A stretch of 64,000 bases of DNA from a virus (taxonomy: Duplodnaviria; Heunggongvirae; Uroviricota; Caudoviricetes). The position numbers were made by a program, and so were the translations under genes. The stretch lies in the IMG/VR virus record IMGVR_UViG_3300031998_000007; one strand, written 5' to 3'. The notes below the pieces were generated by a model that was not told where the DNA came from, did not search any database, and saw only the letters and a program-made list of their open reading frames with translations. Of this stretch, positions 25,160 to 61,448 are shown piece by piece. Within the stretch, counting starts at the first letter, position 1; each line of letters opens with the position of its first letter.

Positions 25160-27064
25160 ATGGACTACAAGAGAATATATGACATCTTCGTTGCCGACAG
25201 AAAGGCACACCCGACTACGGAACTGTATTCCAGCCTCCACCACATCATCCCGCTCGGGGACGGTGGCAAGGACTGCGAGGAGAACCTGGTTCGCCTTTCC
25301 ATCCGCGACCACCAGTTCGCCCACAAACTGATTGACCGCTTTACCGGGCGCAAGGCATGTCCCGAGTTCACCAGGTTTACTTCAAAGCGTCAGATTGCCG
25401 CAATGCAGAAGAACGGCATCGACCCGAAACGCGCAAAGCGTGCCAAGGCCGGTGTCGGAAAGTTCCGCCTGTGGCTGAATGATACGGCCAAGACCCTTGC
25501 CGATGACTTTTCCCAGCAGATCTGCGAAAGGGCCGCTGAGGCTAACCCGGGAATGTCCGTGGTTCCGTTCATTACCAAGCAGTCCTTCCCGATCTGGCTG
25601 TCCGCGCTTAACGGGCTGAGCAAGCACTTCGTCGTCAGTACCCAGAGCGACGAAAACCAGGCGGTCGGCCCGGGCATCAAGATGAGGGCGGGCGAAGTCA
25701 TCCATCTCGGGATGGAGAGCGAAATCGAGCTCGTGGTGAAGAATGTCGGGGAATATCTCAAAGGCAACCTCATGATGGCGATTACCGACGGCGTGGCCCG
25801 CGCATACGCATTTACCCGCGCCACCGAGAAGGACCGGGAAATGTTCATCAACACGGCCACCCGCATGATGCGCATTACCCTCGGCCAGCTGAAGGCCACT
25901 TACCGCGTAATCGAAATCCGCCATGTGTATGAAGTCGCCGACCGCTATGTCACCCGAGTGGTGAATGCCGCAATCATCGACCGCGGGGTGACCGAGTATA
26001 TCGACATGCTCACCCATCCGGTCCTGACGGAAAATGTTGATAAGGTGTTCGGAATGTTGGCAACCCTTGCTGACGAGGCTCCCGTCGATCCGGTCCTCGG
26101 TAACACGATGCACCTTATCGTAAAATACGCGCTCGACAAGTATGTTGACCCGGGCTATTCGATGTCCGGCGACCTGCGCAAGGGCATCGTCTATTGCGCA
26201 TGCAACGACCTTGCGAGAAAACTCGCAACGAAAAAAGACGTACTCGCCACGCATGACCTGAATAAGCTCACGTTCCACGCATGGCGTGAGGTGTTCGGTG
26301 TCCTGTTCGGCAGCATCGCCGACGCAGAAAAGTCCGCGCCCGGCGTCCCGGACTTGCAGGCGGCATATCGCACCTGCACCGACGAAGGTCTCCATGACGA
26401 CATCATGGCCGGCCTCCCGGTCGCCAATGAGCGTATTACCGCATGTCTCGTCGGGATGGTGGCTGCGAAGCTGCGCCCGCATGTGGATGACGGGATGCTT
26501 ACCCAGGAAGAGTTTGACTTTGCAATCGAACCGCGCAGGGTAATGTCTGTCGTCATGCCGGAACTGCAGACCTACACGAAGACGCTGAAAGATGCCAAGA
26601 CCAGGCTCCCGCTTGACCAGTTTGCCAAGAAGTGCCTGTTCGGGTATGCAACGTCATATTCCCGCAAGATTATCCTCTACATGCTCGGCAAGGATGTGAC
26701 CGAGGAGACCTATGGCCGCATTGCCGGTCTTGACGAGAAGTATATCACTGCCACGTTTACGGCGAAGTGCCGTCTCAATGTCGGCATGGTCACTGCAGCC
26801 GTCGAGCCCGGGGCATGTTTCCAGCTTCCGGTCCCGTTCCATGCGATGATCAAGAAGGCAATCGACGACATTAGCATGTTTACTCAGATTTCTAAGGCCA
26901 AGGCCATGCTTCTCAAATCGGAAATCTCCGCGGAACTCGGTAAGCGTATCATGGAAGACGTTTCCCTCCGTCGCCCGACGAGCGTCCAGTTCAACAATGT
27001 CTTTAAAGAAATCCGCCTGATTACCGCCGAGCATGTCCAGAAGGTTCTCGGGGGTGACAAATGA
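25160..27064 (+). CDS. large protein with N-terminal HNH nuclease motif
   Basis: HHIIPLGDGGKDCEENLVRLSIRDHQFAH (HNH); the remaining ~550 aa are unassigned. Confidence 0.6.
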   Translation: MDYKRIYDIFVADRKAHPTTELYSSLHHIIPLGDGGKDCEENLVRLSIRDHQFAHKLIDRFTGRKACPEFTRFTSKRQIAAMQKNGIDPKRAKRAKAGVGKFRLWLNDTAKTLADDFSQQICERAAEANPGMSVVPFITKQSFPIWLSALNGLSKHFVVSTQSDENQAVGPGIKMRAGEVIHLGMESEIELVVKNVGEYLKGNLMMAITDGVARAYAFTRATEKDREMFINTATRMMRITLGQLKATYRVIEIRHVYEVADRYVTRVVNAAIIDRGVTEYIDMLTHPVLTENVDKVFGMLATLADEAPVDPVLGNTMHLIVKYALDKYVDPGYSMSGDLRKGIVYCACNDLARKLATKKDVLATHDLNKLTFHAWREVFGVLFGSIADAEKSAPGVPDLQAAYRTCTDEGLHDDIMAGLPVANERITACLVGMVAAKLRPHVDDGMLTQEEFDFAIEPRRVMSVVMPELQTYTKTLKDAKTRLPLDQFAKKCLFGYATSYSRKIILYMLGKDVTEETYGRIAGLDEKYITATFTAKCRLNVGMVTAAVEPGACFQLPVPFHAMIKKAIDDISMFTQISKAKAMLLKSEISAELGKRIMEDVSLRRPTSVQFNNVFKEIRLITAEHVQKVLGGDK

Positions 27065-27607: not shown

Positions 27608-27985
27608 ATGGATTGGGAAATTACCGGCTATGACAGGTTCTGTGGGGAGATTTCCAGCCCGCCGATCGGCGATGGCGCTGAACCGCAGAAGACCCCGCAC
27701 GAGATAATCTCGGAAACGTTCATGTTCTACGGGGAAATGAACCCGGCGAAGATGAACGGTTTCTGCCGTGACCGCATGCGCACGGTATGTTTCAATTCGT
27801 TGCGGGCCGCACTCGGACTGTCCCCCAGCATCCAGGGCGACCTTGTCATATCGAAGCTGGTCGGCGCCTTCTACGGCCATTACGGCAGCGTGTCGGACTT
27901 CGACATGATCGTGTCGCTCTATGACATGCCGCTGAAAAAGACCGTCGAATACATCAACGGCCTTGATCCCACTAAGGTAATGTAG
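27608..27985 (+). CDS. hypothetical protein
   Basis: 125 aa ORF ending next to the tRNA array. Confidence 0.45.
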   Translation: MDWEITGYDRFCGEISSPPIGDGAEPQKTPHEIISETFMFYGEMNPAKMNGFCRDRMRTVCFNSLRAALGLSPSIQGDLVISKLVGAFYGHYGSVSDFDMIVSLYDMPLKKTVEYINGLDPTKVM

Positions 27986-28059
27986 AGCACTCGGAAGGGC
28001 TCGAACCTTCGCATGGGGGCTTTGCAGGCCCCTGCCTTGACCAACTTGGCTACGAGTGC
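27986..28059 (-). tRNA. tRNA-Cys(GCA)
   Basis: Manual fold: acceptor GCACTCG/CGAGTGC, anticodon loop CTGCAAA, T-arm GGTTCGAGCCC. Confidence 0.7.
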
Positions 28060-28070
28060 ATAAGATGTAG

Positions 28071-28152
28071 TCCCTTCGGGGAGAATCGAACTCCCACGCC
28101 TTTCAGCACAAGGGTTTGAACCGAGCGCGTCTACCAGTTCCGCCACGAAGGG
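28071..28152 (-). tRNA. tRNA-Leu(CAA), type II, weak anticodon stem
   Basis: Acceptor CCCTTCG/CGAAGGG, D-arm GCGGAACTGGTAGACGCG, loop TTCAAAC, long variable arm; anticodon stem has 2 mismatches. Confidence 0.5.
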
Positions 28153-28155
28153 GTA

Positions 28156-28226
28156 TTGGGCGGTGACGGCTCGAACGTCATCCGAGGGGTTCAAAGCCCC
28201 TAGTGCTACCATTACACCACGGCCCA
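28156..28226 (-). tRNA. tRNA-Gln(TTG)
   Basis: U1:A72 as in bacterial tRNA-Gln; anticodon stem AGGGG/CCCCT, loop CTTTGAA; one C:C mismatch in the acceptor. Confidence 0.6.
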
Positions 28227-28236
28227 AAAATTTTAG

Positions 28237-28320
28237 TCGGCAGGGCGGGACTCGAACCCGCACGTCCTTTCGGACACCGCATCCTGAGTGCGGCGCGGCT
28301 ACCAATTACGCCACCTGCCG
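28237..28320 (-). tRNA. tRNA-Leu(CAG), type II
   Basis: Acceptor CGGCAGG/CCTGCCG, anticodon loop CTCAGGA, variable stem GTCC-GAAA-GGAC, T-arm GCGGGTTCGAGTCCCGC. Confidence 0.7.
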
Positions 28321-28325
28321 ATTAG

Positions 28326-28407
28326 TCGGCCATGAGGGCATCGAACCCACACGTCTTGCGACAGACGATCTTAAATCGTCCGCGTCTGCCAATTCCGCCA
28401 ATAGCCG
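28326..28407 (-). tRNA. tRNA-Leu(TAA), type II
   Basis: Anticodon arm GACGA-TTTAAGA-TCGTC; U:U mismatch in the T-stem. Confidence 0.6.
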
Positions 28408-28411
28408 ATTA

Positions 28412-28495
28412 TCTCGTCGGTGGGACTCGAACCCACACGCCCTTTCGGGCACAGGCCCCTCAAACCTGCGCGTCTACCAATTCCGCCACGACGAG
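28412..28495 (-). tRNA. tRNA-Leu(GAG), type II
   Basis: Anticodon arm CAGGT-TTGAGGG-GCCTG; variable arm GCCC-GAAA-GGGC; T-arm GTGGGTTCGAGTCCCAC. Confidence 0.7.
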
Positions 28496-28501
28496 GAATA
28501 G

Positions 28502-28576
28502 GGTGACCGACGGGACTCGAACCCGCAACGGCTGCCTTCACAGGGCAGGGCTCCACCAGTTGAGCTACGGCGCACC
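28502..28576 (-). tRNA. tRNA-His(GTG) with G-1 and a bulged acceptor-stem nucleotide
   Basis: G-1:C73, D-arm GCTCAACTGGTGGAGC, anticodon arm CTGCC-CTGTGAA-GGCAG. Acceptor pairs only if one C is bulged. Confidence 0.5.
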
Positions 28577-28592
28577 ATAAGTGCCGATGTTT

Positions 28593-28718
28593 TTATTGTA
28601 GGAGAATCGGAGCTCCGGTAACTTGATGACAACAATGGCCCGGTAATAGCAAGCCAAGCACGGTCAGGGAAACGACCGCGAGGAGCAGGAGCCAGAATGT
28701 GATGTTGCCGCGTACCAT
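28593..28718 (-). CDS. small hydrophobic peptide (41 aa) inside the tRNA array
   Basis: MVRGNITFWLLLLAVVSLTVLGLLLPGHCCHQVTGAPILLQ; GGAG 7 nt before the ATG; below the ORF-track size cutoff. Confidence 0.3.
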   Translation of the reverse strand: MVRGNITFWLLLLAVVSLTVLGLLLPGHCCHQVTGAPILLQ

Positions 28719-28750
28719 GAGGATACTCCGTTAGTAAGAAAAATTCGTAG

Positions 28751-28839
28751 AGGAGACAGCAGGATTCGAACCTGCGGGGGCTTTGAGGGCCCCACGGCGT
28801 TAGCACCGCCGCGCCTTAAACCAGCTCGGCCATGTCTCC
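28751..28839 (-). tRNA. tRNA-Ser(GCT), type II
   Basis: Acceptor GGAGACA/TGTCTCC, anticodon arm CGGCG-GTGCTAA-CGCCG, long variable arm, T-arm GCAGGTTCGAATCCTGC. Confidence 0.7.
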
Positions 28840-28849
28840 AAATTTTTAG

Positions 28850-28938
28850 TGGGCAGGACAGGATTCGAACCTGTGATGTTTACCCAAAGGGACCTGATTT
28901 ACAGTCAGGCTGCTTCAAACCAGCTTGCATACCTACCC
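28850..28938 (-). tRNA. tRNA-Tyr(GTA), type II
   Basis: Anticodon arm CCTGA-CTGTAAA-TCAGG; long variable arm; T-arm ACAGGTTCGAATCCTGT. Confidence 0.65.
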
Positions 28939-28950
28939 AAAATGTCTTCG

Positions 28951-29034
28951 CGGAAGCGGAGGGAGTCGAACCCCCAAGCCCTTGCGGAACCACGGTTTTC
29001 AAGACCGCTTGAGTCGCCAGTCTCTTGCGCTTCC
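28951..29034 (-). tRNA. tRNA-Ser(TGA), type II
   Basis: Acceptor GGAAGCG/CGCTTCC with G73; anticodon loop CTTGAAA; T-arm GGGGGTTCGACTCCCTC. Confidence 0.6.
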
Positions 29035-29038
29035 ATAG

Positions 29039-29111
29039 CTCCACCTCCTGGACTCGAACCAGGGACCATCCGATTAACAGTCGGGCGCTCTACCAACTGA
29101 GCTAAGGTGGA
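29039..29111 (-). tRNA. tRNA-Asn(GTT)
   Basis: U1:A72, D-arm GCTCAGTTGGTAGAGC, anticodon loop CTGTTAA, T-arm CTGGTTCGAGTCCAG; resembles E. coli tRNA-Asn. Confidence 0.75.
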
Positions 29112-29127
29112 ATAAAAATCACGTCCA

Positions 29128-29925
29128 TTACGGTGTTGATTGGTTGGGATTTGCCCATATCCCACATTTATACGGGCCATATTTTGCCTCCCAGGCGGCA
29201 ATCCGGGATTTCAATTCTTCTAGCGTAATGGAGCATTTGGAACCCTTGGAAGTATTTTTGGTTTGCAAAATCAGTTTGCAATTCGCGGGATGCTCGATAA
29301 TCGTCGCGGGCACTTTATTGATGTAGCCCGCCTTTACGCTATACATGTGGTCGCGTGATACCCCGCCTGGGTTGTTGCCTTTATTGACGGGGCTGTACCA
29401 CCCATGTTTCTTTATCAATTCAAAATCAAACTCGTCTGGATAATCGGCAAGGTTGAATTTAAATTTGCATGCGTTCCTGTAGTTGATGAACTCGGCGGAA
29501 TACGCATTTGCACGTTGCCGTTTTCTGTACTCAATCCGGCATTGGTCCGAACAATATACACGGGTGTGCAATTTATGATGTATTTCAGCGCCGCAGTTTT
29601 TACAGCGCGTTACCGGAACCGAAATCCTGGTTCCCGCAACGATGGTTACTCTTTTGAGTTTTTCGCTAAGTTTTTGCCTTAACTCAGGTGTTCGTTCTCG
29701 ACCATTGGCACAGCTGCGTGAACAGTGGAGAGGCCATCTGCCTTTCTCATAGTCGATATTTCGTATCGCTTTTGTAAATTCTTTATCGCATTTGGTGCAT
29801 GTAAATGTATGTTCAGTTTTTGTTTGGTTATATTCTTTTATGCGGTGCATACTCAACTTGGCCTTTTCACGGCCTAGTTCAATATTTCGCCGATTTGCGG
29901 CTATTCGTTTTTCAGTGATAACCAT
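29128..29925 (-). CDS. HNH-type homing endonuclease with N-terminal zinc-ribbon motifs, AT-rich insertion inside the tRNA array
   Basis: CxxC pairs (CTKCDKEF, CKNCGAEIHH); C-terminal SRDHMYSVKAGY...HPANCKLILQTKNTSKGSK (HNH). Local GC clearly below the window average. Confidence 0.5.
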   Translation of the reverse strand: MVITEKRIAANRRNIELGREKAKLSMHRIKEYNQTKTEHTFTCTKCDKEFTKAIRNIDYEKGRWPLHCSRSCANGRERTPELRQKLSEKLKRVTIVAGTRISVPVTRCKNCGAEIHHKLHTRVYCSDQCRIEYRKRQRANAYSAEFINYRNACKFKFNLADYPDEFDFELIKKHGWYSPVNKGNNPGGVSRDHMYSVKAGYINKVPATIIEHPANCKLILQTKNTSKGSKCSITLEELKSRIAAWEAKYGPYKCGIWANPNQSTP

Positions 29926-29943
29926 AAGAATATCTCCATTTAG

Positions 29944-30016
29944 TGCCAGGAACTGGACTCGAACCAGTATCTGAGGCTTTTCAGACCCCCGCCGTGACCA
30001 TCTTGGCTATCCTGGC
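29944..30016 (-). tRNA. tRNA-Phe(GAA)
   Basis: Acceptor GCCAGGA/TCCTGGC, anticodon loop CTGAAAA, T-arm ACTGGTTCGAGTCCAGT. Confidence 0.65.
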
Positions 30017-30027
30017 ATAAAGTTTAG

Positions 30028-30100
30028 TAGCCCCTGCCGGATTCGAACCGACGTTCCTTGGCTGAAAACCAACTGTCCTAGTCCACTAGACGAAGGGGCC
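30028..30100 (-). tRNA. tRNA-Glu(TTC)
   Basis: Near-identical architecture to E. coli tRNA-Glu (CCCCTTCGTCTAG...), anticodon loop TTTTCAG, T-arm GTCGGTTCGAATCCGGC. Confidence 0.7.
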
Positions 30101-30103
30101 ATA

Positions 30104-30180
30104 TAGGCTATACTGGGATCGAACCAGTGACCTCGGGATTCGTAGTCCCGCGCTCTAAAATCCGGCTGAGCTAATAGCCT
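30104..30180 (-). tRNA. tRNA-Arg(ACG) with enlarged D-loop
   Basis: Anticodon arm CGGGA-CTACGAA-TCCCG as in E. coli argV; D-loop carries an extra TTT. Confidence 0.6.
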
Positions 30181-39624: not shown

Positions 39625-39639
39625 TTTTTGCTATATTTT
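39625..39639 (+). promoter_or_regulatory. extended -10 promoter motif TTTTTGCTATATTTT
   Basis: 4 nt before the ATG at 39644. Confidence 0.55.
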
Positions 39640-39643
39640 GGTC

Positions 39644-40495
39644 ATGGACTTTATAAATTCCCCATTCCCGTATGCAGGCTGCAAGTATGACCTGCTCACC
39701 CACCTTGACCGGCTCATTCCGCAGGGCGAGCGCCTTTTTGACGTGTTCGGCGGTTCCGGTGCGGTCGGCGTGAACCTTTCCTACCGCTTCAACTACGTAT
39801 GCGTCACGGATATACTCCGCGACCTCGTGCAGATGCACCGCAGTCTCCAGAACGACGACCCGGACCAGGTCATCGCCAGGTTGAAGGAACTTTCATCCAA
39901 GGTCCCGGAAAAGTATGCCGAATTGCGCAGCGCCTACAACGCGCTCCCGCCGAATGACCCGGACCGCGGCTACCGTCTTTACGGACTTATCCTCTCCTGC
40001 ACGAACAACCTGATGCGCTTCAACCTCAAGGGCGGTTTCAACCAGACCTGCGGCAAGCGCCAGCTCACCGACAACAAGGAAAAGGAAATCCGTGCATGGT
40101 GCGAACGCCTGCAGTCCGCCAAGGGCAAGGTGTTCTTCGGCTACGGCTCGTTCGACCGCGTGCTCGACAGCATGGCGCAGCGCATCCCGGCGGAAGGGAC
40201 CGTCGTCTATCTCGATCCGCCGTATTCCAACACGGAAGCCGGCTACAATTCCACATGGACTGTCGCCGATGACGACAAGCTCTCCGCGTTCATGCTATCG
40301 CATCCCGGCTACAAGTATGTCCTGTCCAGCTGCAGCAAGGACGGGAAGACTACCCGACTGGTGGAGACTCTCCGCGACAGCGGAATGTACGACACGACGG
40401 AAGTCCCGCACGTTTACAAGGCCGCCAAGAAGAGCAAGACTTCCGAAACGGTAGAACTCATTTTGTGCAGCAAAAACTGCCAAATTTCGCAGTAA
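39644..40495 (+). CDS. Dam-like DNA N6-adenine methyltransferase
   Basis: FDVFGGSGAV (AdoMet-binding FxGxG) and VVYLDPPYS (DPPY). The ORF-tool start at 39638 is a TTG inside the promoter. Confidence 0.8.
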   Translation: MDFINSPFPYAGCKYDLLTHLDRLIPQGERLFDVFGGSGAVGVNLSYRFNYVCVTDILRDLVQMHRSLQNDDPDQVIARLKELSSKVPEKYAELRSAYNALPPNDPDRGYRLYGLILSCTNNLMRFNLKGGFNQTCGKRQLTDNKEKEIRAWCERLQSAKGKVFFGYGSFDRVLDSMAQRIPAEGTVVYLDPPYSNTEAGYNSTWTVADDDKLSAFMLSHPGYKYVLSSCSKDGKTTRLVETLRDSGMYDTTEVPHVYKAAKKSKTSETVELILCSKNCQISQ

Positions 40496-44157: not shown

Positions 44158-44283
44158 AATCCCCGATTTTGTGCACATTTGTGCACTAACCTTGGCACCG
44201 TTTTTATTATAAACAATGACTACCCGCCGACGGAAACGGTCCTCCCGCACCGCCGGCCCAACTTCAACCTAAAGGATTCCTAC

Positions 44284-46854
44284 ATGGAAGAATTACAGGA
44301 CACGAAAATGTCGGAGCGCTCGTTCTTGAAGCAGGTCAAGAAGAAGGATGGCCCCCGGCAGAAGTTTGATCCCCTTAAAATCGAACGCTGCATCACCCAC
44401 GCACTCAATGACGCGAAGTGCACGCTCCCCCAGGAAAAAATCGAGGAAATGACCGGTGATGTGGTTGATTTGCTGTATGACTTGAAGCAGAAGTGCGTGA
44501 GCAATGAATCGGTTGCCATCGCTGTAAAGAAAGTTTTACGCGAAGTCAGCATGCCCGCCTATGATGCCTATGTCATCTTCCGCAACAACCGCGACCGCGA
44601 ACGCACCCTCCAGTCCCCCCTTATCAAGACCGTCCGCGAAATCAAGCATGCCGAGTTGCAGAGCTCCAATACCCTCCGCGACAACGCGAACGAGGCTGGC
44701 GGCACCCCGGCCGGCATGTTCGGCAAGATCGCCGGCGAAACCAACAAGATGTATAACCTGCTCGACAATGTGAGCAGGAAGTATGCGGAAGAGCACACCA
44801 ACGGCTACCTCCACATCCACGACCTCAACATGTATGACCTGACCTTCAACTGCCTCTTTGCCCCGGTAGGCAAGAAGTTGAGGACAGGCTTCGATTCCGG
44901 TACCGGCTTCCAGCGTCCGGCACAGACCATCCAGAGTGCTGCCGCGCTTACCGCCGTGATTCTCCAGTTGCAGTCCAACCAGCAATACGGCGGCATCGCC
45001 TGCGACAACTTCGATTTCGAGCTCGCCCCGTTCGTGGACCGTTCCTTCCGCAGGAACCTTGCCATCGAACTGAATGCGATGGCCGAATATCGGGAAGAGG
45101 ATGAGAACCTCGCCGAATATCGCACGCTCCCCGAAGAGTCCGACGACATCGAGAAGACTGTCAAGCGTATCGCGAAGGTGCTCGGCAAGGCCAATGTGTC
45201 CATGAACCAGCCGAGGAAGAAGCTCTATTGCAGTTTCCCGAAGAAGTGCGTCGACCGCGCATGGCTCTACACCGATGCCGATACGCATCAGGCAATGGAG
45301 GCCCTTGTCCACAACTTGAACTCCTTGCAGTCTCGCTCTGGAAACCAAGTTCCGTTCTCGTCGTTGAACTTTGGCCTTGATACTTCCAACTGCGGACGAA
45401 TGGTCAGCAAGAACCTCATGCGTGCCCAGTATGAGGGCATGGGCGACGGCCTGACCGCCATCTTCCCGATCCTCATCTTCAAGCTCATGAAGGGTTATAC
45501 CAAGAACCCGACCGACCCGAACTACGACCTTTACGAACAGGCCGTCGAATGTCTGGCCCGCCGTTTCTACCCGAACTTCGTGTCGGTGGACAGCACCTTC
45601 AACAAGCCCTATGTGAAGTACCGGACCAAGGAAATCGAACTCGCCGATGGGTTGCGCAACATCAAGCTCCGCGGAAAGGATGAGGGTTTCGCTGAATACC
45701 ACGGGATCATCGAACGCTCCGAATGCCCGGAATATGAATACGAGGTGGAGCCGGGCGAATACTGGGAAATCGTCGAATACGATGAAAAGAAGCTCTCCCT
45801 TCGCAAGCTGATCGAGAACACCACCATTGCGACGATGGGATGCCGCACCCGTGTCATCGGCAATGTCAACGGCCCGGAACAGACTACCGGCCGTGGCAAC
45901 TTTGCCTTCCATACGATGAACCTCCCGCGCCTTGCCATCGAATCCCATATCGAGAAGGACAGTACCGACGAACGCATCGCACGCTTCTACGAGAAGCTCG
46001 ACGCATTGCTCGACGATGCCAAGGAAAGCCTTGTTGAACGCTTTAACCTCGTGTGCCAGAAGACCTACGAGCGCTATCCGTTCACGATGCAGGAAGGTTT
46101 GTACCTCACTTCCGATGACAAGAAGCATGAACTGTCCGATACCATCGCCGAGGTGATGAAGCAGTCCACGCTCTCCATCGGCTATATCGGCATCGCCGAG
46201 ACGATCAACCTCCTTACCGGCAAGATTTACGGTGTCGATCATGAGGTGGATGGACTTGCGGTGGCCATCGTGAAGCACATCCGTGACTTCTGCGACGCTA
46301 CCCAGAAGAAGACCCACATGAACTGGTCCTGCTTCGCCACCCCGGCAGAAGCGGTCGCGGGCCGGTTCGCCACCATCGACGCCAACAAGTTCGCCGACAA
46401 CAAGAAACTTGCCGATGTGAACCTTGAACGCATCTTCGGAAAGGGCTACTACACCAATTCCCACATGATGGACTTCTCTCTCGATGTCTCCCTCGACGAG
46501 AAGATCAAGGTGGAAGCCCCGTTCCATGCCCTCACCAATGCCGGGCATATATTCTACTACAAGTTGAACGGCGACTTGACGAAGAACATCCCGGCAGTGA
46601 AGGCTGCCATCGACGCCATGTATGACGGCAACCTTGGGTACTTCACCGTCACGATGGATTCGGACGACTGTCTCAAGTGCGGCTACCATGGCATCATCGA
46701 CAATGTATGCCCGAAGTGCGGCTGCAAGGATGAACGCTATTTCGTCCGTGTCAGGCGAATTACCGGATATTTAACCGGTTCACCGCGGAAGAGTATTCTG
46801 GATGCTTGGTGCGATGGAAAGAAGAAGGAGCTCATCGATCGGCACAATATCTAG
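44284..46854 (+). CDS. nrdD: anaerobic ribonucleoside-triphosphate reductase (class III RNR)
   Basis: C-terminal zinc ribbon CLKCGYHGIIDNVCPKCGC and glycyl-radical motif VRVRRITGYLTG; N-terminal ATP-cone-like region; start chosen at MEELQD with an AAGGA ribosome-binding site. Confidence 0.8.
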   Translation: MEELQDTKMSERSFLKQVKKKDGPRQKFDPLKIERCITHALNDAKCTLPQEKIEEMTGDVVDLLYDLKQKCVSNESVAIAVKKVLREVSMPAYDAYVIFRNNRDRERTLQSPLIKTVREIKHAELQSSNTLRDNANEAGGTPAGMFGKIAGETNKMYNLLDNVSRKYAEEHTNGYLHIHDLNMYDLTFNCLFAPVGKKLRTGFDSGTGFQRPAQTIQSAAALTAVILQLQSNQQYGGIACDNFDFELAPFVDRSFRRNLAIELNAMAEYREEDENLAEYRTLPEESDDIEKTVKRIAKVLGKANVSMNQPRKKLYCSFPKKCVDRAWLYTDADTHQAMEALVHNLNSLQSRSGNQVPFSSLNFGLDTSNCGRMVSKNLMRAQYEGMGDGLTAIFPILIFKLMKGYTKNPTDPNYDLYEQAVECLARRFYPNFVSVDSTFNKPYVKYRTKEIELADGLRNIKLRGKDEGFAEYHGIIERSECPEYEYEVEPGEYWEIVEYDEKKLSLRKLIENTTIATMGCRTRVIGNVNGPEQTTGRGNFAFHTMNLPRLAIESHIEKDSTDERIARFYEKLDALLDDAKESLVERFNLVCQKTYERYPFTMQEGLYLTSDDKKHELSDTIAEVMKQSTLSIGYIGIAETINLLTGKIYGVDHEVDGLAVAIVKHIRDFCDATQKKTHMNWSCFATPAEAVAGRFATIDANKFADNKKLADVNLERIFGKGYYTNSHMMDFSLDVSLDEKIKVEAPFHALTNAGHIFYYKLNGDLTKNIPAVKAAIDAMYDGNLGYFTVTMDSDDCLKCGYHGIIDNVCPKCGCKDERYFVRVRRITGYLTGSPRKSILDAWCDGKKKELIDRHNI

Positions 46855-46967: not shown

Positions 46968-48878
46968 ATGGAGCTCAATTTCATTTGTAAAATTTGTAAT
47001 AAGCCGTTTGGCAAAACCGGGTTGACTAATCACATCCAGCGCACCCATAAAATGTCATATAAGGAGTATTATGACACTTTCATTGATGGAAGCGAGCACC
47101 TGTGTCCCTATTGCGGCAAAGAGTGTGGGTTTGTTAGCCATTATGGTTATTACGAAACTTGTTGTGATCCCACATGTGTCAGAAAGGCGCAGCACCGGAC
47201 AATGTATGCTCGATATGGTAAGGCCTGTCGCCACCCAGACAAAATTAAGGTAAAACCAATTATTGACTATCCATACCATTGCGAAATATGTGGTCAAGGC
47301 ACAAAGAATTTGCCGATGCTGAATAGGCATCTGAAAAAATATCACCCTGATGTAGATATTGAAAACTACTATAATACATATCTGGGAGTTAAACCACAAG
47401 TATGTGAGGTATGCGGTGGCCGAGCAAAGTGGTTGGGAACGCATTACCATAATGTTTGCGGATGCCCGGAGTGTACTAGCGTATTGCGTGGCAAGAATAA
47501 TGCAATGAATAACCCGGTCTACCGCAAAAAAGCGAGGGATGCGCTAATTGCATTGCCGGACGAAAAAAAGCGGGCAATTCGCGAAAAGGTGGAGCAAACT
47601 TGCTTGGCACGCTTTGGGTATCGGCATAATTGGAGTTCCCCCGAACTGCGTGAGGCTGGCCAGTACGCCACATGCAAGGCACTATATGGCGATCGGAATT
47701 ACCATAATGTTGCGCAAATGCAGAATACTTGCACAGAACGGTTTGGCGTTAGGTCGTTTTCGCAGACTGTTTCGTTTCAATCAAAAATGTGGCATAAATT
47801 CAAGGTGGGTGAAATTACATTTGACTCGTCGTATGAGTATGCACTATATAATTTCTTGAATGCCGCTAAATTGCCATTTATTTATCATCCGAAGGAATCT
47901 ATTCGTTATGAATATGCCGGTAAAGAACACATGTTCTTTCCAGATTTCAAAATAAATGGCCATTTTTACGAGGTTAAGGGCGAGCACCTGTATAAATATA
48001 TGCAGACCCCGAACACTAAGGAGCATGCGAAACTGGAGTGCATTTTAGCAAACAATATCACACTTATAACAAAATGCGATGTATTTGCGTTTATTGATGC
48101 CGTATTTGGAAAATCGTTGAGTATTGATGCTATCGTTGAGCAATGCTTGCATACCGAGTTCCCGGGCAATGCGAAATGGCCTGCATCACATCCCATTTGG
48201 GATTGCTTTGTTCCCGGGCATACTGATCCCCGCACTGCATGGGCAGACCCGGTGTTGGTTCGTAAAGGTGTTCTTAATTTAGTAAAGACATTGAACGACG
48301 CTCTCGTTTCTGGAAAATATCCGGCATTCTGCACAAGATATATCAAATCTCTGCTGAGTGGAAATTACTTTGATAAGGTCCTGGATAGGTTTACTATTGC
48401 AAAGATCGCGCCGAAAGTAACTGCATTACACGAAACCGAACTGTTGCGAATTATTGAGGAATCCGGTGTAGATTTAAGCCCCGGTGTGTATTGCCCAATG
48501 GCTGGGTTTGGCGGCATAGTTCGCGGTGTCAGACGGTGGTTTGAAACTCGCGGTATGTGCGGAGATATTGAGGCCTATGACATCAATGACCGGTTCTGTA
48601 ATTGGTATGGGTGGACTAGGCGTGATGTTTTGGCACAGGTGGTGCACACGAACAAGGTGGTTGTTGTTTGCCCGCCGTTTGGAAAGCAGTATGAGCACTG
48701 GAAGGGAACACCGGACGAAATGTCGGATATTACATTTAAACAATGGGTTTCCTTGATTAAGGAGCATGTCATTGCACCGAATTACATATTTATTGGCCCA
48801 GAAGTCGATGACGGCAAGAACCGTTGTGGCCTATTTAAACGAAAGGTTGGAATTTCATTATATAAGGATGGTATATGA
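46968..48878 (+). CDS. multi zinc-finger protein with PD-(D/E)xK nuclease motif; candidate homing endonuclease in an AT-rich insertion
   Basis: Repeated CxxC...H/C fingers (CKICNK..HIQRTH, CPYCGK, CEICGQ, CEVCGG); FFPDFKINGHFYEVKGEH (PD...EVK). Local GC much lower than the flanks; sits between nrdD and nrdG. Confidence 0.5.
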   Translation: MELNFICKICNKPFGKTGLTNHIQRTHKMSYKEYYDTFIDGSEHLCPYCGKECGFVSHYGYYETCCDPTCVRKAQHRTMYARYGKACRHPDKIKVKPIIDYPYHCEICGQGTKNLPMLNRHLKKYHPDVDIENYYNTYLGVKPQVCEVCGGRAKWLGTHYHNVCGCPECTSVLRGKNNAMNNPVYRKKARDALIALPDEKKRAIREKVEQTCLARFGYRHNWSSPELREAGQYATCKALYGDRNYHNVAQMQNTCTERFGVRSFSQTVSFQSKMWHKFKVGEITFDSSYEYALYNFLNAAKLPFIYHPKESIRYEYAGKEHMFFPDFKINGHFYEVKGEHLYKYMQTPNTKEHAKLECILANNITLITKCDVFAFIDAVFGKSLSIDAIVEQCLHTEFPGNAKWPASHPIWDCFVPGHTDPRTAWADPVLVRKGVLNLVKTLNDALVSGKYPAFCTRYIKSLLSGNYFDKVLDRFTIAKIAPKVTALHETELLRIIEESGVDLSPGVYCPMAGFGGIVRGVRRWFETRGMCGDIEAYDINDRFCNWYGWTRRDVLAQVVHTNKVVVVCPPFGKQYEHWKGTPDEMSDITFKQWVSLIKEHVIAPNYIFIGPEVDDGKNRCGLFKRKVGISLYKDGI

Positions 48879-52200: not shown

Positions 52201-53010
52201 TTGAAAATGTCCTATTCGCTGTTTTTCGGTGACTGTCTGGAGGAGATGAAGAAGCTCGCCCCCAAGTCGGTCGATATGATCCTATGTGACCTCCCCTACG
52301 GCGTCACGCACAACCCGCACGACAAGCGTATTGCCTTCGCGCCCCTATGGGAACAGTATGAACGCGTCATCAAGGACGACGGGGCAATCGTCCTGTTCGC
52401 CCAGGGCCTGTTCTACGTTGACCTGGTGCAGTCCAAGCGCAAGCTGTTCCGCTACGACCTGGTCTGGAACAAGAAACTCGTCACCGGGTTCCTGAACGCC
52501 AAGCGCATGCCTCTCCGCTCCCACGAGCAGCTCGCCGTGTTCTACAAGACCATGCCGAAGTTCCACCCGCAGTTCCATGAAGGGAAGCCCCTCCACGGCC
52601 GCGGCAAGTCCTACATGTCTAAGGACATGGTGAACAACAACTACGGCAAGTTCAAGGCCACGGACGACGTCCGCAAGGGTAGCACCCAGAAATACCCGGT
52701 GTCCATCATCGACATCCCGAAACCGCACCCGTCCAAGTCCGAACACCGCACGGAAAAGCCCGTGGAACTTCTTTCCTGGCTTATCCGTTCCTACACGGAA
52801 CCGGGCGATGTCGTCCTTGACAACTGCATGGGATGCGGCAGTACAGGCCTTGCCGCGCTGAAGGAAGGACGCACGTTCATCGGCATGGAAATCGACAAGG
52901 AATACTTCGAGATTGCCTGGACACGCATTACCAAGCTGGCTGCCGACATGAACAAGGGCGACTTCCACGATGGCATCAAGACTGTCTTCAAGGAGGAAGC
53001 CGATGAGTAG
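52201..53010 (+). CDS. beta-class DNA methyltransferase (N6-adenine or N4-cytosine)
   Basis: VDMILCDLPYG (motif IV D-L-P-Y) near the N-terminus and C-terminal VVLDNCMGCGSTGLAA (motif I): circular permutation typical of the beta group. Confidence 0.75.
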   Translation: MKMSYSLFFGDCLEEMKKLAPKSVDMILCDLPYGVTHNPHDKRIAFAPLWEQYERVIKDDGAIVLFAQGLFYVDLVQSKRKLFRYDLVWNKKLVTGFLNAKRMPLRSHEQLAVFYKTMPKFHPQFHEGKPLHGRGKSYMSKDMVNNNYGKFKATDDVRKGSTQKYPVSIIDIPKPHPSKSEHRTEKPVELLSWLIRSYTEPGDVVLDNCMGCGSTGLAALKEGRTFIGMEIDKEYFEIAWTRITKLAADMNKGDFHDGIKTVFKEEADE

Positions 53011-58336: not shown

Positions 58337-58846
58337 ATGTCAAACGAAAATGAAACCGTTGTTGTCCCGCTCTCCAAGATGCTCGTAACCGAAAAGAAGC
58401 CGTATGAAGGCGAACTCGAACGCCCGCCGTTCGCTGCCGACTGGCCGTTCCTCCCGAGCGAAATCCCCGGCGTTGACGTTTCCAACGCATCCACTTCGAT
58501 CACTCCCGACATGGACATCAAGGCCCTCGCCATGGCTGCCCTCCGAATCAATCGCGACGCGAAGCGCTATGTCGCAATCAACACAAACCAGGGCACCGGT
58601 AGCCATACCGCGAAGCTCCTCGCCAAGAACATCGCGTGCGCCCTCAAGGCGGCGCTCAACGCCAGCTACGTCGGCAAGAACCTCGGCGACGCGATTGGTG
58701 ATGCCGCATGCCTGGAAGAAATCCGTAATGCGGGCAGCGACACTACCATTTATGACAAGCACGACCGCGTCAACAAGGCAATCGAACAGGCCAGGATGCT
58801 CAGGCTGTTCTTCATCGTCAATACACTCAACGATTTCAGGGTATGA
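58337..58846 (+). CDS. hypothetical protein
   Basis: Start at MSNENET (the ORF-tool N-terminus MGFCYISG is the promoter translated). Confidence 0.5.
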   Translation: MSNENETVVVPLSKMLVTEKKPYEGELERPPFAADWPFLPSEIPGVDVSNASTSITPDMDIKALAMAALRINRDAKRYVAINTNQGTGSHTAKLLAKNIACALKAALNASYVGKNLGDAIGDAACLEEIRNAGSDTTIYDKHDRVNKAIEQARMLRLFFIVNTLNDFRV

Positions 58847-60867
58847 TGTCCAAGAACCGCAATTTGAGAGAGGCCAAGACGGCCAAGAATGACGAGTTCT
58901 ACACCAGTTACAGCGCAGTCTCCCATGAAATGAAGGCGCTGTTCGAGCGTGACCCCGGCTTCTTCGCCAACCGCACCGTCCTGTGCCCGTGTAACGACCT
59001 CGAACATACGGGGTTCCGTGACTTCTTCATCGACAACTTCCAGGGTCTGGGTCTCCGCAGGCTCACCTGTACCAGCTATGTCCCGGGCCATCGCGGCCAC
59101 GCGGAGACGGTTACGCTCAAACAGGACGGTAGCGTCAACGTCGTCCGCTGGGTGCTGGATGGCGACGGGGACTTCCGTTCCCCGGAAATCACGAAGTTCA
59201 TGCAGCATTCCGACCTGGTCGTGACCAACCCCCCTTTCAGCTGTTTCTCTTCAGATACCGAGGTGCTCACCGACGGAGGCTGGAAGCTGTTTACCGCCGT
59301 CAAGCCGGGCGACCTCGTCCTCAGCATGGACCCGGCAACCCGCAAGGTCGAATACGCCCGCATCGTTCGTTTCTACGACACCCCGTACAAGGGCGAGCTG
59401 TTCCACTTCAAGAAGTCCGGCATGGACCTCATGGTGACCGGAAACCACCGCATGATCTGCAACGAGCGCAAGGACCTGTTCTGCCGCGCCGACGAGGTGG
59501 TCCCCCACTACCACTCGGTGCCTATCCGCGGGCTGGAATACGACTGGAGCGGCATCCACGAGGAGTTCTTCACTCTCCCGAGCGTCATGCAGAACGAGCG
59601 CTACACCCACAAGGACATCACCGTCCCGGAAAAGAAAATCCCGATGGGCGACTGGCTGGAGTTCCTCGGGTTCTGGCTCGCCGACGGCTGCGTCCGTTTC
59701 GGCAACAATGTCAACGGCAATCCCCGCTACACGATCAGCATCAAGCAGAACGAGGAGAACGAGAAGTACGTCATCGACCTCTACGCCAAGATAGGCTTCC
59801 CGTGCAAGGTCGAGCGTTCCTCCAAGACTAGGAACCACAACTACACCGTTTACAGCAAGCAGCTGTGGACCTACCTCGCGAAGTTCGGCAAGGGCATCGA
59901 GAAGAAGTTCCCGACGGAAGTCCTCTACATGGAACCGGCCTACATGGCCCGCTTCCTCGACGGCTACATGAAGGGCAACTCCCATCTCTCCCACATCGGC
60001 GGGAAGGTGAGCCAGGCAATCGGCAGCACCGCCCCGAAGCTGTGCGAGGGCCTGCAGGAGCTCATCCTGAAAGTGCGCGGCGTGCTCGTGCAGTTCATCC
60101 AGCGCAAGTCCAAGGGAAACCCCTACTGGATGGCGAACTGGGCAATCGAGACCAAGAAGCGCAATACGGACTATCCAGTGCCGGAGAAGGTCCAGTATGA
60201 CGGGACCGTGCACTGCCTGGAACTCGACCGCAACCATACCATGCTCGTCCGCAGGAACGGCCTGGCGACCTGGTGCGGGAACTGCTTCCGGGACTTCGTG
60301 GACTGGGCCGACGGCGCCGACAGGGACTTCTATGTCATCGGCAACAAGAACTGCGTCAACTACAACGAGGTGTTCCGCAAGATGCGTTCCGGCAGGATCC
60401 AGCTCGGCATCACCTCCCCGGACGAGTTCGAGACGCCGGAAGGCGAGACCGAGAAGGTCACCGGCCTTTGCCGGTGGTACACGAACATGTTCGTCCCCCG
60501 GACGGAAGACGAGCGAGGCATCTGTCTGCGGGCCACCTACGACCCGGCGAAATACCCCAAGTTCGAGAACTTCGACGCGATCAACGTCGACAGGGTTTCC
60601 GACATCCCGAAGGACTACTACGGGGTGATGGGCGTCCCGATTACGTTCTTCGACCATTTCGACCCGAAGCAGTTCGAGGTCCTTGGCCGGAGCGGGGACA
60701 CCGCGTGGGTATTCGGCGAGTGCGAGTTCTTTACGCCCCCGCCGGAGGAACGGCAGAAGGCGTACAAGGCCTACTACAAGAACTGGCGGGTGCAGAACAG
60801 CTACCTGCTCGACGAGAACGGGATGCCGAAGTGCATCTATTACAGAGTTTTCATAAGGAGAAGATGA
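58843..60867 (+). CDS. DNA N6-adenine methyltransferase (EFYT...NPPF) interrupted by a LAGLIDADG intein
   Basis: Extein motifs NDEFYTSY and VVTNPPFS|C; 347-aa in-frame insertion begins CFSSDTEVLTDGGW (Hint block A), contains LEFLGFWLADGCV and ARFLDGYMKGNS (two LAGLIDADG motifs) and ends ...NHTMLVRRNGLATWCGN|C. Confidence 0.7.
   Translation: MMSKNRNLREAKTAKNDEFYTSYSAVSHEMKALFERDPGFFANRTVLCPCNDLEHTGFRDFFIDNFQGLGLRRLTCTSYVPGHRGHAETVTLKQDGSVNVVRWVLDGDGDFRSPEITKFMQHSDLVVTNPPFSCFSSDTEVLTDGGWKLFTAVKPGDLVLSMDPATRKVEYARIVRFYDTPYKGELFHFKKSGMDLMVTGNHRMICNERKDLFCRADEVVPHYHSVPIRGLEYDWSGIHEEFFTLPSVMQNERYTHKDITVPEKKIPMGDWLEFLGFWLADGCVRFGNNVNGNPRYTISIKQNEENEKYVIDLYAKIGFPCKVERSSKTRNHNYTVYSKQLWTYLAKFGKGIEKKFPTEVLYMEPAYMARFLDGYMKGNSHLSHIGGKVSQAIGSTAPKLCEGLQELILKVRGVLVQFIQRKSKGNPYWMANWAIETKKRNTDYPVPEKVQYDGTVHCLELDRNHTMLVRRNGLATWCGNCFRDFVDWADGADRDFYVIGNKNCVNYNEVFRKMRSGRIQLGITSPDEFETPEGETEKVTGLCRWYTNMFVPRTEDERGICLRATYDPAKYPKFENFDAINVDRVSDIPKDYYGVMGVPITFFDHFDPKQFEVLGRSGDTAWVFGECEFFTPPPEERQKAYKAYYKNWRVQNSYLLDENGMPKCIYYRVFIRRR
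59242..60282 (+). mobile_element. intein with LAGLIDADG homing endonuclease domain
   Basis: Cys1 at 59242, terminal Asn at 60280-60282, +1 Cys at 60283; blocks A, C/E (LAGLIDADG x2), F and G recognisable. Confidence 0.65.
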
Positions 60868-61448
60868 TGAGCGAATACGCATCAATCAGTGAACTTCGCG
60901 AACGTCTGGCAAAGCTGCCGAAAATCAACTCGGAAGCCTTCATCCAGGCATGCCGCGAACGCGGCCCCATTGCCCCGTTCGACTTGGAGAACGCGGTGAA
61001 GAACAAGATCAAGGAATCCACCGTGTACTACATCTATGTCGGTGCCGGCGGAAAGTTCAGGTTCAAGCCCTACACGCTCAAGCGTGACGAACCGACCTTG
61101 AAGTGCGCGAAGAACTGGGCGGACAACCACTGCTTCGACCGTCGCTTCTACCAGGACGAGGAAGAAGCCCGCGCGATGTGCGCCTTCCTCAACGGCAACT
61201 GCCCGGACGCGGAAATCGTCCGCACCCGCATCGAGAACACCGTGGCCACGGCGATGAGCTGGGGGACCGACAACAAGATCGGTGAAATTGACTACGCGAC
61301 CACCGTTTTGCGCGAAATCTCCAACATCCCCGGGCTCCACCCGGACCTTGTCCGCGCGGCAATCTATGCGGAAAATTTCCTCACTTCCTATCGCGCATAC
61401 CACGAACAGATGGAGACTGTCGCGAGGGAGGATGAACACGATGTCTGA
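60864..61448 (+). CDS. hypothetical protein
   Basis: Start at MMSEYAS after an AGGAGAAG ribosome-binding site. Confidence 0.5.
   Translation: MMSEYASISELRERLAKLPKINSEAFIQACRERGPIAPFDLENAVKNKIKESTVYYIYVGAGGKFRFKPYTLKRDEPTLKCAKNWADNHCFDRRFYQDEEEARAMCAFLNGNCPDAEIVRTRIENTVATAMSWGTDNKIGEIDYATTVLREISNIPGLHPDLVRAAIYAENFLTSYRAYHEQMETVAREDEHDV

Follow-up and report, generated by a model that had tools for sequence, protein, structure and literature searches.

The 64,000-nucleotide stretch of DNA analyzed here (IMG/VR virus record IMGVR_UViG_3300031998_000007; Caudoviricetes), hereafter the window, contains a predicted DNA methyltransferase gene (58843–60867) whose product is interrupted by 347 residues directly after the NPPF motif. 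Is this insertion (59242–60282) an intein that is removed by protein splicing, the remains of one, or a permanent part of the enzyme? It is very likely a bona fide splicing-competent intein within a PF13651 methyltransferase of a jumbo phage, and is predicted to splice by the class 1 route. Empty sites, relatives that share the insertion site, a patchy distribution, the predicted fold, mobility and selection all point in this direction, and we therefore regard the insertion as a real intein and as neither a chance string of motifs nor a fixed domain.

Organization of the interrupted gene

The precursor gene (58843–60867, + strand) was taken from a program-made list of open reading frames (ORFs) and codes for 674 residues (78.3 kDa) of an EcoRI-family methyltransferase split by the intein; the segments and motifs described below are all on the same strand. 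The 133 aa N-extein (58843–59241) carries a DEFYT...SHEM stretch and a motif-I-like VLCPCND, and terminates in ...DLVVTNPPFS, with motif IV (LVVTNPPFS; 59215–59241) at its extreme end. It is followed by the intein (59242–60282; 347 aa, 40.1 kDa; precursor residues 134–480), which extends from Cys1 to Gly346-Asn347 (CFSSDTEV...ATWCGN), and by the C-extein (60283–60867; 194 aa plus the stop codon), which begins CFRDF with TGC as the codon for Cys+1 and contains the helix following motif IV as well as the presumed target-recognition part. The insertion lies in frame, with Ser133 before it and Cys481 after it; the frame runs on with no frameshifts or stops, and the computed spliced product is 327 aa in length (38.2 kDa). 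A preliminary description of this locus gave the same ORF, the quoted amino acid strings, a 347-aa insert at 59242–60282 and a 327-aa spliced product, all of which are exact in the translation. A group I intron and a free-standing endonuclease gene are both ruled out by the continuous frame and by ends that correspond to intein splice residues.

The ATG start codon at 58843 overlaps the TGA of the upstream gene (gtATGATGtcc; ATGA), and an alternative ATG at 58846 is the start used by two relatives (P0001 and P0121). ATGA-type start/stop overlaps at 58843–58846 and at ~60864 connect an upstream 181-aa ORF, the methyltransferase-intein gene and a downstream 194-aa ORF, suggesting translational coupling across this string of co-directional genes. 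An antisense 544-aa ORF (59251–60885, - strand) covers nearly all of the intein and C-extein; most likely this is not a gene but an artefact, stop-free owing to the ~60% GC of the opposite coding strand. No compositional discontinuity was found over the exteins and intein (GC 0.57–0.63), and there is thus no sign of recent foreign origin.

Identity of the host enzyme

The spliced extein matches the Pfam EcoRI_methylase family (PF13651) with E=1.1e-73 and 249 bits (cut-off 26.4), with residues 99–326 mapping onto PF13651 positions 115–344 in a single stretch that runs through the junction; the unspliced precursor matches in two pieces and with a lower score of 225.6 bits. No family other than PF13651 is found for the spliced extein at E≤1, including PF05869 (Dam), to which the preliminary description had assigned it. 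Its expectation that the two exteins would align across the junction without a gap holds, both in the PF13651 alignment and in an 89%-identical allele described below. All 24 of the 24 residues that are invariant among 61 intein-free relatives are kept in the window exteins, and the extein has both motif IV ((N/D)PP(Y/F)) and a class I S-adenosylmethionine (SAM)-methyltransferase fold. We infer from these similarities that the extein is an EcoRI-family (PF13651), gamma-type N6-adenine DNA methyltransferase, with the corresponding activity also predicted.

The insert divides the methyltransferase where the helix after the NPPF catalytic loop begins. Intein-free members of the family read NPPFS-LFRE(F/Y) at this position (consensus NPPFSLFREY) and the window exteins read NPPFS-CFRDF. 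A Foldseek search with the extein yielded no match in the Protein Data Bank (PDB) at E≤0.001, and by this result no solved structure exists for the PF13651 family. No restriction endonuclease gene adjacent to the methyltransferase was seen among the neighbouring ORFs examined, and the enzyme therefore looks to be an orphan.

Intein-free alleles and patchy distribution

The homologue set comprises the best-scoring 95 clusters (600–900 aa; 37–96% identical), and the insertion after NPPFS is present in all 95 of these. Both junctions are delimited in 90 and have the form NPPFS↓C(Y/F)S.DTEV ... W(C/S)GN↓CFR(E/D)(F/Y), where arrows denote the splice junctions. Thousands of PF13651-type family members are without the insert, including P0121 (326 aa), which has 89% amino acid identity to the spliced extein from end to end with no gaps and reads NPPFS-CFREF. 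The P0121 gene (locus L002) is 89.7% identical at the nucleotide level, and its blastn alignment breaks at window coordinate 59247 and resumes at 60282. An independent second empty allele (L004) is present on a 253-kb IMG/VR viral contig, and both L002 and L004, which come from two other samples, lack exactly the 1041 nucleotides of 59242–60282. In L002 and L004, similarity to the window is confined to the methyltransferase gene and to a distant N6_N4 methylase, such that the gene is in a different genomic neighbourhood.

Intein-bearing and intein-free alleles interleave when ranked by extein identity, with 93.6% (with intein), 89.3% (without), ~64% (with) and 58, 53 and 52% (without); the remaining intein-bearing alleles have ~42% extein identity on average. 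The preliminary description took homologues that keep the same 347 residues as a conserved domain to argue against an intein, and some 90 clusters do keep them. The intein assignment is not refuted by these, because most members of the family, including the 89%-identical allele, lack the insert and because the same element is found in unrelated hosts.

The intein-bearing allele is common in metagenomes. A megablast search with the gene finds no match among 50,697 GenBank phage records, and tblastn finds only intein-free methyltransferase homologues and distant inteins in the same records; none covers ≥80% of the query, and the intein-bearing PF13651 gene is absent from this collection. Junction-specific patterns gave no confirmed locus when 185,579 species-representative genomes of bacteria and archaea were scanned.

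The sequence at the insertion site in both empty alleles is ...CCCCCTTTCAGC↓TGTTTCCGGGAATTC..., a candidate substrate for the endonuclease, and both retain Cys+1, with Leu present at this position in 13 of 13 other intein-free relatives listed. The simplest reading of these sequences is that the Cys+1 empty alleles arose by precise loss of the intein from a once-occupied allele; alternatively, they could represent a target that was pre-adapted to insertion. The intein begins with TGTTTC (within window 59239–59247) and the C-extein with TGCTTC (within 60280–60288), forming a 5-of-6 direct repeat, and the empty allele reads AGC↓TGTTTC (L002 7458–7475, and L004). A deletion between the TGTTTC and TGCTTC repeats would yield exactly the empty allele, and a single nucleotide weakly favours this route. 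The empty allele (AGC↓TGTTTCCGGGAATTC) also contains an EcoRI site (GAATTC) 8 nt past the insertion point, inside this EcoRI-family methylase gene, and the window copy has GACTTC at the same position.

A collinear relative from a 436-kb contig (L001) is 91% identical to the window at the nucleotide level over 12.8 kb. The intein is the most conserved part of the gene, with 96.7% nucleotide identity to L001, compared to 90.2% for the N-extein and 94.8% for the C-extein. There are 26 synonymous and 7 non-synonymous codon differences within the intein (P about 2e-9, calculated from a rough neutral expectation with an assumed figure of 28% of changes being synonymous), indicating strong purifying selection on the intein; the exteins are also under purifying selection.

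Predicted structure and splicing motifs

An AlphaFold (AF2) model of the intein, using 61 sequences, has a predicted local distance difference test score (pLDDT) of 95 and a predicted template modelling score (pTM) of 0.92, and in this model the insert adopts a Hint fold with a nested double LAGLIDADG domain. The top 16 Foldseek matches in the PDB are all endonuclease-bearing inteins, TliVMA being the first (E=7e-18), with further intein matches to PI-PkoII, PI-SceI, PhoVMA and PI-PfuI; the stand-alone LAGLIDADG enzymes I-DmoI and I-Tsp061I match the inner domain (E about 1e-6). A hidden Markov model (HMM) built from 130 related inteins matches ORF 58843–60867 at E=3.5e-97 and no other ORF in the window. 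The preliminary description had pointed to Pfam models as a check, and the LAGLIDADG_3 model (PF14528) does score above its gathering threshold on the insert alone (24.0 versus 22.5 bits), although the splicing-domain models do not, as discussed below. Matches in PHROGs are to intein-containing ThyX and ribonucleotide reductase (RNR) families and to LAGLIDADG endonucleases.

Conservation of individual residues was counted in 91 methyltransferase-borne inteins and in 130 wider-family copies from other hosts, the latter pre-selected for Cys1 and a terminal Asn. Block A (CFSSDTEVLTDGG; 59242–59280) contains Cys1 (A:1; TGT, 59242–59244), which is present in 91/91 and 130/130 copies respectively, as expected from selection in the second set. 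Block B (GMDLMVTGNHRMIC; 59419–59460) contains the T66-G-N-H69 motif followed by Met71; Thr66 (B:7) is conserved in 91/91 and 127/130 copies and His69 (B:10) in 90/91 and 130/130, and Met71 (B:12) is invariant in the methyltransferase-borne inteins (91/91) and is found in 75 of the 130 others, the remainder being aliphatic. Block F (TVHCLELDRNHTMLVR; 60205–60252) has Cys325 at F:4 (60214–60216) and His332 at F:13. Cys325 is present in all 91 methyltransferase-borne inteins and in 110/130 of the wider family, where it is otherwise Asp (11), Ser (6) or Gly (3), and His332 is kept in 82/91 and 77/130.

Block G and the +1 residue (NGLATWCGN↓C; 60256–60285) include Trp344 (G:4; 90/91 and 88/130), Cys345 (G:5; Cys in 66 and Ser in 25 of the 91, and Cys in 71 and Ser in 43 of the 130), the penultimate Gly346 (G:6; 91/91 and 124/130) and Asn347 (G:7; 91/91, and 130/130 in the set chosen for having it). 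All 86 homologues with a complete junction keep W[CS]GN↓CFR, apart from one with Phe in place of Trp and one with Ser at +1; Cys+1 is thus present in 85/86 and Ser in 1/86, and Cys+1 tracks the presence of the intein. The Asn and Cys at the C-terminal junction in the preliminary description are therefore well placed, and an intein immediately after motif IV agrees with the empty alleles, the fold match and the conserved junction residues. Its blocks F and G are also real, but they are not canonical, with Gly-Asn instead of His-Asn and with Cys instead of Asp at F:4.

Relatives of the intein in other hosts

When the insert was searched with phmmer against 1.84 billion representative proteins, 7494 matches were obtained at E≤1e-3, 216 of them also at E≤1e-30. 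The best matches mostly span residues 1–347 and are embedded in proteins of 500–3700 aa, often with several in one protein; hosts sampled include Mu-type portal proteins, NrdD and GARS. In one example (P0252), a relative of the intein interrupts NrdD in another metagenomic phage. Of 141 full-length copies in the family, 131 have Cys1, and most of the inspected exceptions among the ten others are 349–373-aa proteins with nearly no flanking sequence; P0268 is an exception with Ser1 within a 1238-aa host. Seven proteins of 349–373 aa (P0233, P0234, P0241, P0281, P0287, P0288 and P0351) match almost the entire intein but are missing Cys1, the terminal Asn or both, and have next to no extein around them. 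These may be free-standing intein-derived endonucleases or fragmentary gene calls.

Ten relatives (P0254, P0258, P0264, P0267, P0271, P0279, P0299, P0304, P0324 and P0353) are located directly after NPPF, NPPY or SPPY, with C-exteins beginning, for example, SLRNY or CANDF. The hosts are putative methyltransferases as judged from this motif; Pfam scans of four of them gave no methyltransferase domain at E≤1e-5. Inteins of this family nonetheless seem to have inserted repeatedly at motif IV of amino-methyltransferases. The position next to motif IV, which the preliminary description considered noteworthy, is thus not rare, with members of the same family following NPPF, NPPY or SPPY elsewhere and with other phage-methylase inteins already published (PMC5050341, PMC9957025).

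Proposed splicing pathway and alternative explanations

In the proposed pathway, the 78-kDa precursor would be translated as one chain with the methyltransferase split after its NPPF loop. Cys1 would form a thioester with Ser133, the N-extein would pass to Cys+1, Asn347 would cyclise, and a peptide bond would then form to give ...NPPFS-CFRDF..., releasing an active methyltransferase of 38 kDa and the free intein of 40 kDa. As DNA, the insertion is part of a large phage-borne intein family that homes into intein-free alleles. The features expected of class 1 inteins that are found here are an N-terminal nucleophile, the Block B Thr-x-x-His, Asn↓Cys+1, the Hint fold and precise empty alleles; the penultimate His and the F:4 Asp are absent.

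Several points weigh against an active class 1 intein. The Hint, Intein_splicing and TIGR01445 models match the insert below threshold (E about 1e-3), the usual assisting residues are lacking (penultimate Gly rather than His, and F:4 Cys rather than Asp), and the invariant F:4 Cys together with a class 3 intein as the nearest solved relative make the predicted reaction route less certain; splicing itself is a prediction. However, the penultimate Gly and F:4 Cys are family-wide. Penultimate Gly occurs in a mycobacteriophage intein that has been assayed for splicing (Bethlehem gp51), and phage inteins, splicing-competent ones among them, often replace the penultimate His, with Gly among the substitutes (PMC5050341); the usual assisting residues are thus typical rather than strictly defining. 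Standard inteins usually have Asp at F:4, and class 3 inteins have Cys there (PMC2807308).

The alternative that survives best, although we consider it unlikely, is that splicing follows a class 3 or a hybrid pathway, in which Cys325 would attack the N-terminal junction and the resulting branched thioester would resolve onto Cys+1, with Cys1 being redundant or regulatory. It draws on the F:4 Cys in 91/91 methyltransferase-borne and 110/130 wider-family inteins, and on the combination of Met at B:12 with no penultimate His, as in the proven class 3 intein AceL NrdHF with its 'MCT' triplet (PMC7891396), which is also the best solved sequence relative of this intein family. Nor does class 3 need the N-terminal nucleophile to be missing, and WCT inteins with Ser1 or Cys1 are known (PMC2807308, PMC5222942). 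The class 3 features nevertheless fit only in part: F:4 is Cys, but the absence of Cys or Ser at position 1 (PMC7891396) does not apply here, and in place of the remainder of the WCT triplet (Trp B:12 and Thr G:5) there are Met71 and Cys345. Cys1 is present in nearly every host-embedded copy (131/141), which would be unexpected were it dispensable, 20/130 relatives have Asp, Ser or Gly at F:4, and G:5 is Cys or Ser rather than Thr. In addition, the similarity to AceL NrdHF is limited to the N-terminal subdomain, and Cys+1 is very rare in class 3, Bvi IcmO being the sole case known in PMC5222942. The standard class 1 route is favoured because Cys1 is so broadly retained while F:4 tolerates Asp, Ser or even Gly, the last of which cannot serve as a nucleophile; this is the pattern of a residue that assists the reaction and not of one that must carry out the attack.

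A more speculative and doubtful possibility is that the combination of Cys1, Met(B:12)-Cys(F:4)-Cys/Ser(G:5) and penultimate Gly marks a large uncharacterised family related to class 3, or else that Cys1, Cys325, Cys345 and Cys+1 form a thiol/redox-gated switch that delays activation of the methyltransferase. If true, either reading would be relevant to the debate about the origin of class 3 inteins, by divergence from class 1 or by convergence (PMC7664689).

It is very unlikely that the insert is a degenerate, splicing-dead remnant, leaving the methyltransferase as effectively a pseudogene or an inactive 78-kDa fusion. Loss of a catalytic Asp in the endonuclease (N246, described below) is a sign of homing-cycle decay, and the missing penultimate His and the sub-threshold matches to curated Hint models are consistent with a dead element. 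But the essential splicing positions are intact (Cys1, Thr66/His69, Asn347 and Cys+1), there are zero frameshifts or stops, every family-invariant methyltransferase residue is retained, and nearly all of the family has a penultimate Gly (124/130); purifying selection is evident on the intein (26 synonymous versus 7 non-synonymous differences) and exteins. A permanent, non-excised domain, such as the nuclease module of a fused restriction-modification enzyme, could explain the insert at an identical site in ~90 homologue clusters and the purifying selection on its endonuclease part (12 synonymous versus 2 non-synonymous changes), but is extremely improbable given an 89%-identical allele precisely without the insert, the interleaving of insert-bearing and insert-free exteins (93.6% with, 89.3% without, 64% with, 58% without), the same element in portal, NrdD and GARS proteins, termini that are exactly intein splice residues, and a catalytic centre split at the post-motif-IV helix that should preclude activity.

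The homing endonuclease domain

The LAGLIDADG homing endonuclease domain (PF14528; 59644–60159) corresponds to intein residues ~135–306 and is nested within the Hint fold. It has the double-motif pseudo-dimer fold (alpha-beta-beta-alpha-beta-beta-alpha), with the two LAGLIDADG helices at residues 135–148 and 232–246 of the AF2 model. The first motif (WLEFLGFWLADGC; 59653–59691) contains LEFLGFWLADG and ends with the catalytic Asp148 (59683–59685), a position that is Asp in 90/91 methyltransferase-borne copies. The second (ARFLDGYMKGNSH; 59947–59985) contains FLDGYMKGNS and has Asn246 (AAC, 59977–59979) at the catalytic position, so that only the first motif ends in an acidic residue. The preliminary description listed two LAGLIDADG motifs, and while both are present, the second (ARFLDGYMKGNS) is without its catalytic Asp. 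Position 246 is Asp in 86 of the 91 homologues and Asn in four (the window copy, P0001, P0003 and P0024), and is Asp in 121/130 wider-family members.

Asp-to-Asn substitutions at these sites in I-CreI and PI-SceI abolish cleavage while binding is kept. With Asn246, double-strand breaks are therefore expected to be inefficient, with nicking at most; the endonuclease of this copy is thus probably impaired, and double-strand cutting, and hence active homing, probably lost or reduced. The endonuclease domain differs from that of L001 by 12 synonymous and 2 non-synonymous changes (P about 1e-5), and the selection acting on it could be due either to some activity that remains or to splicing requiring the insert to fold well.

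Genomic context

The window derives from a tailed jumbo phage. It encodes a baseplate-wedge homologue (2145–4778), NrdD, an SF1 helicase and a flotillin, and has an array of 13 leftwards-oriented tRNA genes (27985–30180, - strand; Cys, 4 Leu, Gln, 2 Ser, Tyr, Asn, Phe, Glu and Arg) typical of jumbo phages. It is syntenic with the 436-kb contig, and its relatives are on IMG/VR viral contigs of 100–253 kb.

There are three DNA methyltransferase genes in the window, each of a different Pfam family: MethyltransfD12 (39638–40495), N6_N4_Mtase (52201–53010) and EcoRI_methylase (58843–60867). The enzyme described here is thus the third DNA methyltransferase in the window, as had been proposed, and it is the only one of the three that contains an intein. 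The nrdD gene (44179–46854, + strand) codes for an 891-aa product with an ATP-cone and a Pfam match in two stretches; the family HMM identified no second intein in the window, NrdD in particular. Two rightwards-transcribed ORFs (25160–27064 and 46968–48878, + strand) have matches to homing endonucleases in PHROGs (phrog_655 and phrog_3339), and the window therefore has several selfish nuclease genes. IS605 OrfB/TnpB (Cas12f-like) genes are situated near the methyltransferase region in the 436-kb relative (L001 1–2) and in the empty-allele contig (L002 2292–3593).

Comparison with known inteins

The intein is real but fairly ordinary within its large family of phage inteins, and current understanding of inteins is unchanged by its discovery. 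Three allele states are nevertheless in hand, consisting of the intein-bearing gene, a close relative of it that is empty but has a Cys+1 'scar', and the ordinary Leu+1 form, so that the homing cycle in jumbo-phage genes is directly testable. Genes of this kind are labelled by annotators merely as 'EcoRI_methylase' with a doubled length, and recognition of the intein provides the true 327-aa enzyme. Any residual upside might lie in the class-3-like signature combined with Cys1; the family has this unusual signature and is related to a class 3 intein that is fast and robust and serves as a ligation tool, which makes it a reasonable source of new splicing reagents.

Inteins in phage methylases have been described previously. 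Eleven with LAGLIDADG endonucleases are present in the mycobacteriophage DNMT-1/2 enzymes of the N6_N4_Mtase family (PF01555) (Kelley et al. 2016, PMC5050341), and 21 in an actinophage methylase family (Dorothy_75) with evidence for horizontal transfer (Gosselin et al. 2023, PMC9957025). The window intein resembles both in being a LAGLIDADG intein with a patchy distribution at a conserved site in an orphan phage DNA methyltransferase and with a non-His penultimate residue. Unlike DNMT-1/2 of the actinophages (PF01555), the host here is a PF13651 enzyme of a jumbo phage with about 58% GC, and the literature searched yielded no account of inteins in EcoRI-family methylases or at motif IV.

Structurally, the nearest counterparts are TliVMA and PhoVMA (7qsu, 7qss, 7qst), PI-PkoII (2cw7), PI-SceI (1vde) and PI-PfuI (1dq3), which are inteins from archaea or yeast, hosted by VMA, polymerase or RNR genes, and likewise have a Hint fold with a nested double LAGLIDADG domain (Foldseek E=7e-18 to 3e-13; TM about 0.55–0.67; 9–17% identity). 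The window intein differs in being shorter (347 aa), in having no extra DNA-recognition region or stirrup domain, and in its C-terminal Gly-Asn and F:4 Cys.

By sequence, the best solved relative is the AceL NrdHF intein (6zgq), which a search with the single sequence finds at E=1.2e-3 and one with a Hint-only profile at 5e-11, the similarity being detected over the N-terminal subdomain only. AceL NrdHF-1-1 is naturally split and experimentally proven to be a class 3 intein, with a Met-Cys-Thr triplet and no penultimate His (PMC7891396). The two share a block B of the form xPNHRM with Met at B:12, an F:4 Cys, the lack of a penultimate His and a likely phage or metagenomic origin. However, AceL NrdHF has Ala1, Thr at G:5, no F:13 His, a split structure and a free-standing GIY-YIG endonuclease gene, whereas the window intein has Cys1, Cys at G:5, His332, a contiguous structure and a LAGLIDADG domain.

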